55,835 bases of DNA. Origin: Promethearchaeota archaeon. Lineage in GTDB: Archaea > Asgardarchaeota > Lokiarchaeia > Sigyniarchaeales > SOKP01. The translations under genes were made by a program, and so were the position numbers. This document shows, in pieces, positions 16,373 to 42,186 of this stretch. Under the pieces are notes generated by a model that was not told the origin of the DNA, did no database searches, and saw only the letters and a program-made list of their open reading frames with translations. The stretch is from assembly GCA_008080735.1 (NCBI GenBank), contig SHMW01000020.1, positions 1 through 55,835 of the forward strand, written 5' to 3'. Within the stretch, counting starts at the first letter, position 1; each line of letters begins with the position of its first letter.

Positions 16373-16594
16373 ATGAATGTTGGAAAAATGAGTAAGAAAG
16401 GTCAAATTGTGATTCCCAAAGAAATTCGGGAACGTTTCGGAATCATGCCCGGCGATGCGGTAATATTTAAAATCAAAGGGGACAAGATTATAATAGAAAA
16501 AATAGATCAAAAAATGTCGGATATTTTAATAGAAAGTCAACCAGTAGAAGATAGCATTGAATTTCAGAAAAAACTCCGTGAGGATTGGGAATGA
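16373..16594 (+). CDS. AbrB/MazE/SpoVT-family antitoxin
   Basis: KMSKKGQIVIPKEIRERFGIMPGD; stop overlaps the PIN gene start (ATGA). Confidence 0.9.
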   Translation: MNVGKMSKKGQIVIPKEIRERFGIMPGDAVIFKIKGDKIIIEKIDQKMSDILIESQPVEDSIEFQKKLREDWE

Positions 16595-17010
16595 AAGTAA
16601 ATCTTGATACAAATATTTTCATTACTGTTAAAAATCAAGAACCTCATTTTGAATATTGTAAACAAATAATTGATAAAATAGAAAACAAAGTCCTTAATGG
16701 GGTGATGTCTACGATTGTATTGATGGAAGTACTCGTGGGATTTTTCCAAAATAATGAAAAAAACGCAGCAAATGCATTTGCAAACAAAGCAATGCTTAAT
16801 TATGATCTTATTTCAGTAGATCATGAGATAGCAAAAAAAGCAGCAAATATAAGGGTTCAATATGGTATTAAACTTCCAGATGCGATAATAGCCGCCACCA
16901 CTCTTCTTTCTGAATGTGACTACTTTATAACTAAGAATAAACCACTATTAAAAAAATTAGATATTCAAAAAATTTCACCAAAAGAGTTTGTAGAAAAAAT
17001 TCTAAATTAG
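16591..17010 (+). CDS. vapC: VapC/PIN-domain toxin
   Basis: VNLDTNIFI, LMEVLVG, KLPDAIIAAT and FITKN. Confidence 0.88.
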   Translation: MKVNLDTNIFITVKNQEPHFEYCKQIIDKIENKVLNGVMSTIVLMEVLVGFFQNNEKNAANAFANKAMLNYDLISVDHEIAKKAANIRVQYGIKLPDAIIAATTLLSECDYFITKNKPLLKKLDIQKISPKEFVEKILN

Positions 17011-21091: not shown

Positions 21092-21544
21092 ATGAGAAAA
21101 GATATTGACGATATTGATCGCGATATAATTCGCATCTTGCAAGATAATGCCCGGACGTCCTACAGAGAAATTCAAGATAAATTAGGGATATCGATTGGTA
21201 CGATTCATAATCGAATCGCCAAATTAAAGGACAAAGACATTATCGAAGGTTATACAATCCGCCTAAATAACACCAAATTGGGTTATAAGCTTACTTTTCT
21301 CATACGGATGCAGATAAATGGAAAACATACTGAAGAAATATTGAGCGAAATACGCAATAGACCCGAAGTATGTTCTATCTTTCACACTACAGGGGAGCAA
21401 TCTGCCGCACTTATCTGCAGATTTAAGGAATCTGATGATGTACATAAATTTATACGAGAACTCAACGAGAAAGAATATATCACGCGTACGGTATCAAACA
21501 TGGTTCTGAAAGAATATAAAAATACTGCTTTCGTTCAAATCTAA
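21092..21544 (+). CDS. Lrp/AsnC transcriptional regulator
   Basis: IDDIDRDIIRILQDNARTSYREI...TIHNRIAKL HTH plus C-terminal RAM domain (TTGE). Confidence 0.92.
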   Translation: MRKDIDDIDRDIIRILQDNARTSYREIQDKLGISIGTIHNRIAKLKDKDIIEGYTIRLNNTKLGYKLTFLIRMQINGKHTEEILSEIRNRPEVCSIFHTTGEQSAALICRFKESDDVHKFIRELNEKEYITRTVSNMVLKEYKNTAFVQI

Positions 21545-21647: not shown

Positions 21648-22595
21648 TTGAACTATTCAAACGATAAAATTCTCATTATAGATCTAGGAAGTTATAGCAT
21701 AAAAGCGGGACAAGCATGTAAAAATAAGCCCCAAATCGCTATGAGATCTTTAATTGGAGAATCTAATGAAAGGCATAAAGTCATTTATGGAGAGGATGCC
21801 CTCGAAGAACCATTTACTCCCAAATCCTTAATAGAGTATAAATGGGACATCATTCAGCTAAGGAGGGAAGATATGGTTCCCTTATTCCATACTGTTTTTG
21901 AAGAAAAACTAAAAATTTCCCGAAATGATCTGGGATCTTATTCTCTTATTTTTTTAAATGGTGTATTACAGCCCACAGAACAAATTAAACGTTGGTATGA
22001 GTTATTTTTATATGATTTTAACTTTGAAAAAGTAGCTGTAATTGAAGTTACCGAACCCGTGTTTTTCCACGCGAAAACTGATATTGGCCTCGTGGTAGAT
22101 ATTGGGTTTAAATCAACTCGATTTGTACCGTATTATATGGGTTATAAGATGTCTCACGCAGTTTTGTCAGAACTGCTTGGAGGTAGGGAGGTAGAAAAAT
22201 ATAGGGATATTAAAATTTTGATTGAACCCCATAGATTACACCGGAAGTTAATCCCTCACCCGCTTTCTGAATTGATTATCAAAACAATTGAATACTGTGA
22301 CAAAAATTTACAACAGGATTTATTCTCTAATATTATTCTTACCGGATGGAATGCCGCTAATGTGAATCTGCCAAAAAAATTAAAGAAAGATATAGAAACA
22401 AGAAGACCAAATACACTATTTGATATATTTCCAGCTTCTAATGAATATTTTAATTGGTTTTGTGCCTCTCAAATTACTCAGAAAGCACAAGATGAGACAG
22501 GATTAATTCATTTTGTTTCTCAAAAGGACTTTGAAGGAAATCCAAATATTATTTATCTTCCAAGGATTGTAAAAGATTCATTCCAAAATTTCTAA
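21648..22595 (+). CDS. Divergent, shortened actin-related protein
   Basis: Phosphate-1 IIDLGSYSIKAG, phosphate-2 VVDIGFKST, VPYYMGY, LGGREV, CDKNLQQDLFSNIILTG and FVSQKDFE follow actin order. Confidence 0.85.
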   Translation: MNYSNDKILIIDLGSYSIKAGQACKNKPQIAMRSLIGESNERHKVIYGEDALEEPFTPKSLIEYKWDIIQLRREDMVPLFHTVFEEKLKISRNDLGSYSLIFLNGVLQPTEQIKRWYELFLYDFNFEKVAVIEVTEPVFFHAKTDIGLVVDIGFKSTRFVPYYMGYKMSHAVLSELLGGREVEKYRDIKILIEPHRLHRKLIPHPLSELIIKTIEYCDKNLQQDLFSNIILTGWNAANVNLPKKLKKDIETRRPNTLFDIFPASNEYFNWFCASQITQKAQDETGLIHFVSQKDFEGNPNIIYLPRIVKDSFQNF

Positions 22596-23297: not shown

Positions 23298-24890
23298 ATG
23301 TCAAATGTTCCAATAATCGTTCTTAGAGAAGGAACTGAAACGAAGAGAGATAGGGAAGCGCGTACACAGAATATTCGAGCGATGATGGCGATTACCGAAG
23401 CCGTAAAGAGCACCATGGGCCCAAAAGGCATGGATAAAATGCTGGTGGACTCCTTAGGTGATGTGACCATAACTAATGACGGCGCGGAAATCCTTGACCA
23501 ATTAGACATCGAGAATGTAGCCGCCATCATGATGGTAAATCTAGCGAAATCTGTCGATAAGGAAGTGGGCGATGGTACCACCTCTGCCGTCATTTTCTGC
23601 GCAAAACTATTAGAAAATGCGCTTGAACTCATTGAGCAAGATATTCATCCTAAACCGATTACACAAGGATATAAATTAGCCGCAGACAAGTCCGTAGAGA
23701 TTTTAAACGAAATCAAAGAGACTATTTCTCCTGATGATGAGAAAGTACTCTTAGGGGCGGCAGTTACTTCAATGAATTCCAAGGATATTGCAGCCGTGAA
23801 GGAGTATTTCGCGAAACTCGCTTTAAAAGCCGTTCGCAGCGTAGCTGAACGAAATGCTGAAGGTCCTTTATTTGATCAGATTGATAACATTAAAATCATA
23901 AAAGCACCCGGCAAATCTCTAAAAGATTCTGAATTAATCGATGGGGTATACATTGATAAGGACAAAGTTAGCTCAAACATGCCTGATAGCTTAACAGATG
24001 TGAAGATTGCGGTTATCCGAAAGAAATTGGAAATCCATAAAGGAGAATACGACTCACAGATCCAAATTAAAAACCCCGAAGATATCCAAAAATTCTTAGA
24101 TCAAGAAAAGAAAACCCTGCAAGGTTATTTAGAATACTTTAAAGCACTAGATGTCAATATGGTGGTAAACTCCCAATCAATCTCAGACAAGTTTGGCGCT
24201 ATGCTCGGAAGAGAGGGGATTGCTGCCATTAAAAGTTTAGGCGACAAAGACGTTGAAGCAGTTTTGAATGCGACCGGAGCTACTATGATTGACGACTTGA
24301 AAGATCTAACCGCAGAAAGCCTCGGATATGCCAAAAAGGTTAAATTTGAAAAAATCGGAGATTCTGATTATACGTTATTCTCTGGATGTGAAAATCCACG
24401 ATCTGTCGCGATTCTTTTAAAAGGTGGTCTTGAAAAGATTTTAAATACCGCAGAGATCGCATTACATGATGTAATCAGCATCCTAGCGAAGATTATCGAT
24501 ACGAAAACTGTGATCGCTGGCGGTGGGGCGGGATGGCTTGAGATTGCCAAGCACTTACGTGCATACGCGAACGAGATCGGCGGAAAAGAACAGCTTGCAG
24601 TTCAAGCGTTTGCTACAGCTTTAGAAGAAATCCCACGAACACTCATTCGCAACGCGGGATTAGACGAAATCGAGCGTATGACCGAGCTTCGTGCAGCCCA
24701 TAAAGCTCCGGAAGATAAATGGGTGGGTATAGATACAATTACAGATACTATCCAGAACAATTATGAACACGGAATCGTAGAACCCTCCGTACTTATCAAG
24801 CATATCGTTGAATCAGGAAGTGAATTAGCTCGATTGATCCTCAGAGTCGATAGAATCATCAACGCAAAAGGATCAAAAGAATCCGATTAA
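23298..24890 (+). CDS. Group II chaperonin (thermosome/CCT-like subunit)
   Basis: STMGPKGMDKM, TITNDGA, GDGTTSA, AGGGAG and LILRVDRII. Confidence 0.95.
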   Translation: MSNVPIIVLREGTETKRDREARTQNIRAMMAITEAVKSTMGPKGMDKMLVDSLGDVTITNDGAEILDQLDIENVAAIMMVNLAKSVDKEVGDGTTSAVIFCAKLLENALELIEQDIHPKPITQGYKLAADKSVEILNEIKETISPDDEKVLLGAAVTSMNSKDIAAVKEYFAKLALKAVRSVAERNAEGPLFDQIDNIKIIKAPGKSLKDSELIDGVYIDKDKVSSNMPDSLTDVKIAVIRKKLEIHKGEYDSQIQIKNPEDIQKFLDQEKKTLQGYLEYFKALDVNMVVNSQSISDKFGAMLGREGIAAIKSLGDKDVEAVLNATGATMIDDLKDLTAESLGYAKKVKFEKIGDSDYTLFSGCENPRSVAILLKGGLEKILNTAEIALHDVISILAKIIDTKTVIAGGGAGWLEIAKHLRAYANEIGGKEQLAVQAFATALEEIPRTLIRNAGLDEIERMTELRAAHKAPEDKWVGIDTITDTIQNNYEHGIVEPSVLIKHIVESGSELARLILRVDRIINAKGSKESD

Positions 24891-38832: not shown

Positions 38833-41800
38833 TTAATTAACAATTGCTTCAATGGATATTAACGAAAAAACTGATTTAAACGCTATATAAAGCATCATAT
38901 AAAGTAAAAATAACACCACAAACATAAGCAGATATCCAATTAACGGGCTTTTCCAAATTCTCTTGCTGCTGATTTTTCTCTCAGATAGTTGTTTGATTCC
39001 GCGAGCAAATATCCACGATGCCAAAAATATGAATGGAATGCCAAAAAGCATAATCCATCCAAAATTATAGATTACACCGATTAATACAGAGACCATTATG
39101 TCATAAACATCATTGATACTATTTAACTCGGTCCAGAGACCATGGATAGCGACCTTTAAATCCTGAACTGTAGTAAATAACATAAGAACTCCAGTAAATA
39201 TTATTATTGGAAATATCCATAAAAAGCTGAGCGTAGAGAGGCTGGAAAGTTTCTCGTTATCAATAGAGATAGATTGTGTCTTAGCAATTTTATTGACCGT
39301 GAGTCGATTAGTTCTACCATAAATTTTCGAGAATCCATATATTAATAATCCCATCAATAAAGAACCGATGATATAAATCCCCATAATTACATAAGGAAGT
39401 ATGTCAAAGACGAGGTTGTATTTATCCTCATGATATTGGGAATGATATATGATTGTATTTGTAACATCTACGCAGGAGATCAAGAAGAAACTGATTAGTA
39501 ACCCTCCAAGGAATAGATGGATAGTTCTGTTAAGAAATTTCCAATTTTTCTCGAAATATCTCTCCTCAAAAAGCACTTCTTGGACTTGAAATGGATGTGT
39601 ATAGCTCAATTTAACCAATTCTTTTCGAGACGGCTGTTGGGGTATCTGGGATGAGGAAACTTCATCCTTGAAATTGCTAGGCTTAAACTTTTGTTTTATT
39701 TTTTCAATTGATTCTGATGTTATGGAAATATCTCTTGAAATTAGAACATATAATACACCGCATAGTGCCAATATTGTCATATTTGCGAACAATAGAATGA
39801 AAGGCTCGGGAGAATATGCAAATGAACCCAAATCATTATAGAGTTCTGTTCCGTCTCCTCGTACTATGCTGAAATATGGCGCGCTAATACTCGTACTAAG
39901 GCCGTTTGCTTCAACTTGAAGCTGATCAGAACCTCCAATCAGAAGAGCGTTTGCCCCTTCTGTGGATTGGGACCATGTATGAAACTTTTCACCCCAACCA
40001 GGATAACCCGGATTATTTGCGATGTAGGCTCCGTATGCCCAGAGCTCGAAGCTATTCTCATCTTGATGAGGGTGGTTTTGGTCGTAATTCTTACAACTAA
40101 AAGGCATGAATAAACCATCCGTGTCACCCGAACGCAAATATGCCATTGAAGATGCTTTCCATACCTCTTTACGACTTTCGAATGGTTCAGATTGGATGGT
40201 CTCATTTACATTATAGAGGAGAATTCTGTGAAATGAAGGATTTGCTCCGAGTAGATATCCATAATCGTTCGTGCTAATGTATTGGGAATTATTTTGTCTT
40301 TCTTCCCATATATACTGGTATCTTGCCGCTCTCTTAGGACTAGTATTGTTCACTTGTGCAGCTGCAAATAGTAAAACTTCTTGAATATCTCTATCGAAGG
40401 TACAATCCTCAAAACTTCCGGGCATTCCAAGTGGTCCTAAAGTTTCTGCCATATAATCATATGAAGCTAAAATTTGATCATCCTCATAAAAATTAAACGC
40501 ACCTAATCTTTTTAAGCCTGTAGTAAACTGACTCATATGAAAGAAGGCAAATGCCATATAGCTATATCCCTCAAATGAACCCCCATCTGCAGGGTTCTGA
40601 TTATAAAAATAATCAAGACAAGTTTCAGTGGCGATATTGATCATTTCCTCATCTTGGAGTACCAATCCCGCTAATCCCAATGCACCCGCATCAACCACAC
40701 GATGGTTATTGCGATGATACAAGTCCATGCGCTTAAGTGGTTCTGCATGTTCATATAACAGATTATAAATCGTAGATCGTTCATTAGAAGTAAGATTTTG
40801 GTATATCATATCGAATGCAATTGCATATGCCTCAACGCTTTTTGCTCGTCGCAAATCCGCTGAATAATGAGTAATGGATCCCATATCAAGGAGATATTCT
40901 TTTAATTTATTCAACACACTCGCATTATTATTAAGTGTAAAATCAAGGGCTAATTTATAGACCGCATGTCTCCTCTGATCATCTTCATAAAATTCTGGAT
41001 CGCGAGCGAGTTCTATGTCGATATCTCCGATATAGGTATCAGTCCAATTATTCCATGGTTTATTTGAATCTGCGATTTTGTTTCTAAGATCTTCTAATTC
41101 ACTATTATTATATAAAATATACGGATGGGTTAATCCAGCAAAAAGATTCATATTAATACCCCACTTATCTTTGGTTGGCATAGAAGGTGTTGGTATAGGT
41201 TCAGTTAATTGATTCTTTTCTGGATTATAATACTTATCTGAATTGCTAATTACGAACGAGCAAGAATCGCTAATAGATAAGGTCGTTAAATTATTTGCAT
41301 ATGATATGGTTGTATTATCTCCGTTAATTTTTATCATCTCTGGGATAAAAGGGCAAAAAATCTGTACTTGACTATTTTGCCCGTTGATATATCCCGAAAT
41401 TTGCGAGCTGTTAAAATAGGTTATCAAAATATTCGTAAGCGGTTCTGAGGATTGGAACGAAATATTATTTTCGAATTTTAAATATTTAGCCTCTTGCAGA
41501 AAGCAATATTCTATTTTTGAGGTATTAGTATTATTCCTGCGAATGAAAAAGAGCTCTCCATCAAATTCGATGTTTGGACTGGAAAATTGTACTGATGCGC
41601 GCTCATCGCGATAGTATAGAAAGTCATTATCCCCGATTTTTTTTAGACCATCTGGGAGTGAGGTAATTTCGGGAATCTGCTGAGCCGTATTAGAATCATT
41701 TTTCGGGTAGAGGATTGTAGACATCAGTGGATGATTGGCTCCCGAATATCGCGCTTTAATGTAGGTTGTATCAATATCGGGATAATTATTTCCCTCATCA

Positions 41801-42186
41801 TAATTTTTAGGACAAAAAATCCCTTCCTCGCTGGATATAGCATCTATCGGTTCTAAAAATGTCGCGTTCAAAGTAATATTGTCATTGGAGACATAACTCT
41901 GCACTTTAAACGAAACCGATTTCCGATCGTCTGCGACTTTCAGATCTCCTCGACTATGTAATAACCAATCAATATCATAATTCCTTGCTTGTGGACTTAA
42001 TTCATCGACCATAATGAAATATCCCGCTTGCCCGGTGTCTTCGTTCGGTTTTATAAATAAAATTTGACGCGAATATCCACCATAGGTCGGAAATAGTTGA
42101 AACGCGACAACGGTAAAGAAGATATTAAATCCTAATAATATCGAAATAAGGGCAAAAAAAATGATTGATCGTTTCGATTTTTTCAT
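38833..42186 (-). CDS. Membrane-anchored heparinase II/III-like / oligo-alginate lyase-like protein
   Basis: HPYILYN, NNH, EGYSY and HPHQDENSFELWAYG; N-terminal TM plus a multi-TM C-terminal region. Confidence 0.8.
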   Translation of the reverse strand: MKKSKRSIIFFALISILLGFNIFFTVVAFQLFPTYGGYSRQILFIKPNEDTGQAGYFIMVDELSPQARNYDIDWLLHSRGDLKVADDRKSVSFKVQSYVSNDNITLNATFLEPIDAISSEEGIFCPKNYDEGNNYPDIDTTYIKARYSGANHPLMSTILYPKNDSNTAQQIPEITSLPDGLKKIGDNDFLYYRDERASVQFSSPNIEFDGELFFIRRNNTNTSKIEYCFLQEAKYLKFENNISFQSSEPLTNILITYFNSSQISGYINGQNSQVQIFCPFIPEMIKINGDNTTISYANNLTTLSISDSCSFVISNSDKYYNPEKNQLTEPIPTPSMPTKDKWGINMNLFAGLTHPYILYNNSELEDLRNKIADSNKPWNNWTDTYIGDIDIELARDPEFYEDDQRRHAVYKLALDFTLNNNASVLNKLKEYLLDMGSITHYSADLRRAKSVEAYAIAFDMIYQNLTSNERSTIYNLLYEHAEPLKRMDLYHRNNHRVVDAGALGLAGLVLQDEEMINIATETCLDYFYNQNPADGGSFEGYSYMAFAFFHMSQFTTGLKRLGAFNFYEDDQILASYDYMAETLGPLGMPGSFEDCTFDRDIQEVLLFAAAQVNNTSPKRAARYQYIWEERQNNSQYISTNDYGYLLGANPSFHRILLYNVNETIQSEPFESRKEVWKASSMAYLRSGDTDGLFMPFSCKNYDQNHPHQDENSFELWAYGAYIANNPGYPGWGEKFHTWSQSTEGANALLIGGSDQLQVEANGLSTSISAPYFSIVRGDGTELYNDLGSFAYSPEPFILLFANMTILALCGVLYVLISRDISITSESIEKIKQKFKPSNFKDEVSSSQIPQQPSRKELVKLSYTHPFQVQEVLFEERYFEKNWKFLNRTIHLFLGGLLISFFLISCVDVTNTIIYHSQYHEDKYNLVFDILPYVIMGIYIIGSLLMGLLIYGFSKIYGRTNRLTVNKIAKTQSISIDNEKLSSLSTLSFLWIFPIIIFTGVLMLFTTVQDLKVAIHGLWTELNSINDVYDIMVSVLIGVIYNFGWIMLFGIPFIFLASWIFARGIKQLSERKISSKRIWKSPLIGYLLMFVVLFLLYMMLYIAFKSVFSLISIEAIVN

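Follow-up and report, generated by a model that had tools for sequence, protein, structure and literature searches.

In actin, subdomain 4 builds the pointed face together with the D-loop and contributes half of the adenine pocket, and Q137 and H161 position the attacking water. AlfA, from the Bacillus subtilis plasmid pLS32, is a ParM-like bacterial ATPase of a plasmid partition locus in which the whole of subdomain IIB (equivalent to subdomain 4) is replaced by a short link; yet it polymerises and binds ATP, the adenine being sandwiched by F12 and Y255 (10.1101/186080, 10.1101/190744). Loss of subdomain 4 alone thus excludes neither polymerisation nor ATP binding. In Arp11 (ACTR10), which acts within the p62/p25/p27 complex on Arp1, deletion of the subdomain-2 loop together with a kept barbed face has been interpreted as capping of the pointed end (PMC2174220). 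For viractin 04 of Hokovirus HKV1 (UniProt A0A1V0SF23), a length of 278 aa and 73% coverage of human actin are reported (PMC8850707). Literature searches, with subscription papers outside their coverage, retrieved no description of an Asgard actin devoid of subdomain 4.

The mini-actin reported here is encoded in the window, i.e., the whole 55,835-nt stretch of DNA analysed, from the genome of a Promethearchaeota archaeon (GCA_008080735.1, contig SHMW01000020.1). It is a member of the actin family that is neither Lokiactin nor AlfA. With Lokiactin and eukaryotic actin (PF00022; PMC9834061) it shares the same fold of subdomains 1-3 (TM about 0.82 by query) and residues D11, G13, K18, D154, G156, G182, G301, and W340, whereas subdomain 4 and the D-loop are absent and Q137, H161, G158, and G302 are replaced; unlike Lokiactin, it is fast-evolving and found in 1% of Asgard genomes. 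Its model can be superposed on Arp11 (PDB 5adx_J) over 272 aligned residues with Z 25.7 and rmsd 3.1. Both proteins are divergent, have a deleted subdomain-2 loop and an altered pointed face, and are predicted not to self-polymerise (PMC2174220), but in Arp11 subdomain 4 is present, insertions in it being predicted, and the barbed face is conserved, whereas the mini-actin has no subdomain 4 and a barbed face conserved at background level.

Regarding AlfA (PDB 6f95; Z 17.5, rmsd 3.2 to the mini-actin model), the equivalent of its F12 is Y16, an aromatic residue four positions past the phosphate-1 Asp. Unlike AlfA, which displays a GG motif and IB-mediated polymerisation, the mini-actin belongs to the eukaryote-like actin branch, has lost Q137 and the GG doublet (every intact member has GW), and its subdomain 2 is eroded. 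No plasmid partition locus with adaptor and centromere was found at any of the mini-actin loci examined, all of which have chromosomal housekeeping neighbours. Viractin 04 is likewise a short relative of eukaryote-type actin, 21% identical to the mini-actin; it is encoded by a giant virus, unlike the mini-actin, whose context is archaeal, chromosomal, and syntenic within the genus. As 279 columns of its predicted structure (BFVD entry A0A1V0SF23) can be aligned to the mini-actin model (TM 0.81 by target), viractin 04 probably lacks the same subdomain 4; the word "subdomain" is absent from the main text of its paper (PMC8850707). In the sources available, a reduction of this kind was found described only for AlfA and, implicitly, for this one giant-virus protein.

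Fold and subdomain-4 deletion of the mini-actin

The ORF (Table 1) encodes a well-folded actin-family protein minus most of subdomain 4, as claimed in an earlier sequence-only reading of this DNA. The TTG start is common to syntenic relatives. The protein matches the Pfam Actin family PF00022 with 87.1 bits (cut-off 27, E 1e-24), and PDB actins align to it in two pieces, residues 8-194 with actin 7-196 and residues 184-285 with actin 253-355. The AlphaFold model (pLDDT 92.8, pTM 0.90) is nearest to actin and ARPs (TM about 0.82), with Z about 31 to Arp3 and actin, and Z no higher than 21 to MreB, AlfA, and ParM. No subdomain 4 is present in this model, where only three short helices lead from the last subdomain-3 strand to the helix at actin 274-284; structure prediction, which that reading had proposed as a check, therefore agrees with it. 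A second family member is also modelled with confidence (pLDDT 93). A search of the ESM Atlas with the mini-actin returned generic actin clusters only.

Table 1. Features of the mini-actin gene and of its immediate neighbours, with positions in the window.
Feature	Position	Strand	Remarks
Lrp/AsnC regulator, upstream flank	21092..21544	+	
Mini-actin ORF	21648..22595	+	TTG start, 315 aa
Phosphate-1 loop D12-K19	21681..21704	+	Actin D11, G13, S14, K18 kept; G15 replaced by invariant Tyr16 (AlfA F12 position)
Shortened subdomain-2/D-loop segment G37-G48	21756..21791	+	11 residues, compared with 21 in Lokiactin; lowest conservation in the family
Remodelled sensor loop Y64-R72	21837..21863	+	YKWD motif; actin H73 replaced by W, G74 by invariant D
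V134 at the catalytic Q137 position	22047..22049	+	Ala in second subclade
Phosphate-2 loop D151-R158	22098..22121	+	D154, G156 kept; G158 replaced by invariant Lys, H161 by invariant Arg
Subdomain-4 deletion junction G178-P194	22179..22229	+	Y185 (actin Y188) fused to R186 (actin R256), about 67 residues gone
Barbed-face triad region C217-N220	22296..22307	+	D286 kept; V287 replaced by Lys (Glu in second subclade), D288 by Asn
Adenosine motif TGW	22341..22349	+	G302 replaced by Trp in all intact members
Connect-2 motif P262-W270	22431..22457	+	Conserved aromatic pair, N269 invariant
Loki-type profilin, 126 aa	22697..23077	+	E 1e-10 to PDB 5yed; adjacent only in this sublineage
Thermosome (group II chaperonin) subunit, downstream flank	23298..24890	+	

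When aligned to Lokiactin from the same genome (P0013), the helix ending at actin Y188 passes directly into R256. As had been read from the sequence, 8 residues separate GGREV from LIEP, versus 75 by actin numbering. The G182-D286 span (actin numbering) is 39 residues long versus 104 in the genome's Lokiactin, and 84-124 in 58 of the 61 actins outside the mini-actin family, Lokiactin counted in. The short D-loop was also borne out, with 11 residues over the G36-G55 span versus 21. An assembly error or a strain lesion is ruled out: the junction is spanned gap-free by contigs from two public runs (which may be the source samples), the same gap is present in the proteins of near-identical strains from two other assemblies (P0001, P0003), and a search for homologues with the same in-frame deletion yielded seven further intact ones (295-328 aa, 33-38% identical to the window protein). 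With both subdomain 4 and the D-loop gone, the proposed loss of the pointed-end face holds, and the deletion characterises the family and is not a lesion. The most reduced member, P0012 (L058:8001-8888; 295 aa, frame open), is missing 17 additional subdomain-2 residues, as well as the final 12 of the C-terminal motif of the family.

Other unusual actins were observed along the way. P0112 (L064:563-1408), found on a 1.9-kb metagenome contig with virus-like neighbours, is a 281-aa actin without subdomain 4 in which the GGG motif is kept and the phosphate loops are similar, the YKWD, K155, and W234 signatures being absent; its sister P0154 (311 aa) has a partial deletion. A single clade of these two with the mini-actins was not rejected (p-AU 0.73, with long branches), and the free trees do not join them. 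Two eukaryote-like actins, P0074 and P0113, have a similar internal gap and may be exon-skipping gene models or fragments. In P0027 (715 aa), a Lokiactin-like part is permuted, its N-terminal segment following the C-terminus, and is continued by another domain and a hydrophobic tail; misassembly is possible. The genome under study also encodes P0016 (L003:931-2463, G000 C26), a 511-aa actin-related protein whose C-terminal half carries two inserted zinc ribbons.

Nucleotide cleft and conserved surfaces

The canonical adenine pocket is lost, given that the half contributed by subdomain 4 (10.1101/186080) is deleted and that G302 is now a Trp. The substitutions noted in the sequence-only reading were recovered by mapping on Lokiactin, with V134 at the Q137 position, R158 at H161, and W234 (in TGW) at G302, and no member of the family retains the catalytic residues. 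Equivalents of D11, G13, K18, D154, and G156, which form the phosphate clamp, are invariant in the family. The conserved new residues of the cleft are Y16, the YKWD loop with D67, K155, S156, R158, W234, and N269, and every invariant cleft residue of the family is kept in the window protein. Neither W at G302 nor K at G158 appears in the counts listed for 59 control actins. D67 and K155 fall at actin positions 74 and 158, both of which are listed around the phosphate site (PMC13156746). By actin numbering, K155 and R158 would lie at the gamma-phosphate site and W234 at the adenine site, which it may plug. The same numbering suggests that, on balance, W66, D67, K155, R158, and W234 lock the two halves of the protein together; with the cleft locked by these new residues, the shape of the protein would be independent of the nucleotide state.

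Selection was located by within-family mean pairwise identity, comparing 31 cleft positions, a set fixed after inspection of the alignment though drawn from actin motifs, with 2000 random position sets that included buried positions. Identity in the cleft is 0.85 versus 0.51 overall, above all 2000 random sets. It is 0.48 for the subdomain-3 barbed face and 0.33 for the subdomain-1 barbed face, with the cross-strand patch at 0.60 and subdomain 2 at 0.36. At the level of sequence conservation, selection is thereby shown to concentrate on the new invariant cleft residues and not on the barbed or profilin face. Among mini-actins of the second subclade, dN/dS is 0.15-0.35. Neither subdomain 4, nor the D-loop, nor the canonical adenine pocket is thus indispensable for a eukaryote-like actin fold to be stable and under selection.

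The view that the profilin-binding barbed face is the retained, selected surface found no support, since its conservation does not exceed the protein average and its similarity to Lokiactin is at the level of other divergent actins (z -1.1 to +1.6). Moreover, V287 and D288, part of a triad whose mutation blocks polymerisation (PMC9010300), are both replaced, by which docking on a filament end would be weakened. The equivalents of Y166, G168, Y169, H173, and D286 are kept and are near-universal in divergent actins; E167, V287, D288, and the C-terminal half of subdomain 1 differ. In the second subclade, the cross-strand patch (actin 109-113, 173-179) resembles Lokiactin more closely than expected (z 1.7-2.9), weakly so in the window mini-actin (z 0.9); the signal is carried by 9 positions in related sequences, this being one of four sets tested.

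Family distribution, neighbourhood, and gene loss

The mini-actin family is real but rare, and its members are predicted to be unable to enter ordinary actin filaments as regular subunits. It forms one clade (support 100/99), separate and long-branched, outside the conserved Lokiactin clade; the trees, built without an identified Arp11 sequence and without Hokovirus viractin 04, did not resolve the full-length paralogue ancestral to it. The genome also encodes the conventional Lokiactin P0013, to which the mini-actin is only 23-25% identical, three other full-length actin relatives, and Loki-type profilins. Matches to the family profile can be found in 4 of 400 Asgard genomes, namely this one, two of the same genus, and a fragmented genome of another family (4.4-kb contig, which may be misbinned), so Lokiactin does not need the mini-actin. 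One homologue comes from a Candidatus Lokiarchaeota genome, which suggests a Lokiarchaeal host. With a junction-spanning profile, matches across the junction were confined, among the matches listed, to the same four genomes (167 weaker ones besides), and a pattern scan gave no match in the genome contigs and only the P0007 loci in the metagenomes.

Two subclades, A and B, can be distinguished, and the gene is found at several different loci, patchily across genomes. The second (B) is intact, is mostly found beside a PhoU-like gene, and carries a nearly invariant C-terminal insert of 16 residues, modelled as an ordered helix and hairpin, which the window protein lacks. In G129, G131, G133, and G134 the site of this subclade is empty, both flanking genes being adjacent, which leaves a functional link with the PhoU-like neighbour unsupported. 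In the genome under study, the flanks of this site are near contig ends (G000 C16:1-420 and C72:1-270), with no mini-actin remnant seen there, so a second-subclade copy may be present in the gap between C16 and C72.

Subclade A, to which the window copy belongs, is located between the Lrp and thermosome genes. In G131, Lrp directly adjoins the thermosome gene with neither mini-actin nor profilin between them, so the two genes lie inside an Lrp-thermosome block that exists without them. The profilin gene is 101 nt downstream of the mini-actin on the same strand, and a profilin is also present at two related loci; no profilin was found beside the mini-actin at the G133 locus or at any second-subclade locus examined. 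Where the mini-actin is broken, profilin is intact and under purifying selection (dN/dS 0.09-0.18), and its closest orthologues elsewhere are in unrelated contexts. The proposed link between the mini-actin and its neighbouring profilin thus failed, the profilin neighbour being neither conserved nor lost upon pseudogenisation of the mini-actin. A conserved actin-profilin-chaperonin module was likewise ruled out, by G131 (neither gene), G133 (no profilin), and L065/L067 (profilin with a broken mini-actin). A second, distant profilin-like gene is present at G000 C35:25977-26294, with 25% identity to the window profilin.

At the subclade-A locus, the mini-actin is broken in three of four lineages, by a frameshift in a T run in G133, by three in-frame stops in L067, and by stops and a deletion of about 270 nt in L065/L066, whereas the window and P0001 have an open frame. 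The window copy belongs to a subclade that is losing the gene. As a late, genus-level accessory gene that is absent from most Lokiarchaeia and is disappearing from this subclade, the mini-actin carries limited weight for eukaryote origins.

Candidate roles of the mini-actin and other genes of the window

The mini-actin is tentatively read, with a probability of about 0.38, as an accessory actin-related protein of mostly one Lokiarchaeal genus, a rigid stoichiometric actin-fold subunit that is neither a filament subunit nor an ATPase and has a role at the pointed end. That it offers no pointed face to further subunits and does not hydrolyse ATP is predicted with good confidence: since both pointed-end elements and the catalytic residues are lost, it would be unable to extend a canonical filament and probably to hydrolyse ATP. 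The earlier suggestion of a non-polymerising, ATPase-dead protein is in line with this, as the catalytic residues are replaced family-wide and the pointed face is gone, making canonical polymerisation and hydrolysis unlikely. Using subdomains 1 and 3 together with the cross-strand patch, the protein would dock at the pointed end of Lokiactin filaments or oligomers, and would then halt growth at that end, as Arp11 in dynactin. By analogy with Arp11, termination of Lokiactin filaments at the pointed end seems the likeliest function (about 0.35-0.4), confidence being held down to this level by the erosion of the barbed face and by the gene's rarity. A stronger version, namely a dedicated three-lobed paralogue with a self-locked cleft that evolved in an Asgard archaeon independently of eukaryotes and caps Lokiactin pointed ends, is considered unlikely.

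The cleft is the only strongly conserved region, and its features can also be reconciled with a monomer unrelated to filaments, which would bind a nucleotide or other phosphorylated ligand without hydrolysing it, in a non-canonical pose like that of AlfA, and would signal via a surface particular to the family, for example the C-terminal hairpin found in the second subclade. The invariant phosphate clamp, the new K155 and R158 placed at the gamma-phosphate site, Tyr16 at the position of AlfA F12, the aromatics in connect-2, and the order and near invariance of the 16-residue insert all point in this direction. However, an aromatic residue (Y or F) at position 15 is common, occurring in 19 of 60 control actins, and conservation of the cleft is equally expected from residues that plug or stabilise it, so that a ligand-binding monomer is possible but rather unlikely. 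The history of the locus raises the further question of whether the window copy is a dispensable paralogue from a once-functional family, drifting towards a pseudogene. Besides the three broken lineages out of four, a strain with 99% identity carries C217W, a change at a conserved position, and the window protein, devoid of the C-terminal insert, is the longest branch in the family (1.35). Such decay is improbable given the open frame in the window and in P0001, the retention of all invariant cleft residues, and a dN/dS of 0.23-0.29 versus syntenic relatives, which is well below 1 and similar to that of neighbouring metabolic genes (0.2-0.24).

Proximity of the profilin gene, on the same strand here, and its presence at two related loci, together with the kept equivalents of Y166, G168, Y169, H173, and D286, would suit a decoy for profilin or gelsolin, whose barbed face would titrate the neighbouring profilin and free Lokiactin monomers. 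It is very improbable, considering that those residues are near-universal in divergent actins while E167, V287, D288, and the C-terminal half of subdomain 1 differ, that profilin is missing at G133 and at the second-subclade loci examined, that it remains under purifying selection where the mini-actin is broken, and that its close orthologues elsewhere are in unrelated contexts. AlfA, which makes filaments and binds ATP without the same subdomain, and the patchy occurrence of the gene at several loci leave room for a simplified polymer of the mini-actin itself, held together by alternative contacts. Nevertheless, the longitudinal contact of AlfA is made via subdomain IB and its glycine doublet is retained, whereas in the mini-actin conservation is lowest in subdomain 2, most of which is deleted in one member, and neither Q137 nor G302 remains, the latter being replaced by Trp; nor was any plasmid, adaptor, or centromere context found at the loci examined. 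A self-polymer is therefore the least probable of these readings.

Were pointed-end capping true, the mini-actin would be an archaeal functional counterpart of Arp11 and, to our knowledge, the first pointed-end regulator of the Asgard cytoskeleton. The protein is in any case a natural minimal actin with which to ask which surfaces are needed by regulators and filament ends, and it could raise the question of what non-filament actin paralogues do in Asgard archaea.

Elsewhere in the window, an ORF of 846 aa (58-2598) has no Pfam match, and an ORF of 1117 aa (38833-42186) has a heparinase II/III-like match at its C-terminus only. A PIN-domain gene can be found at 16585-17010, and in the sister assembly L063 it is preceded by a small MazE/AbrB-type gene; the two form an ordinary toxin-antitoxin pair of the VapBC type.
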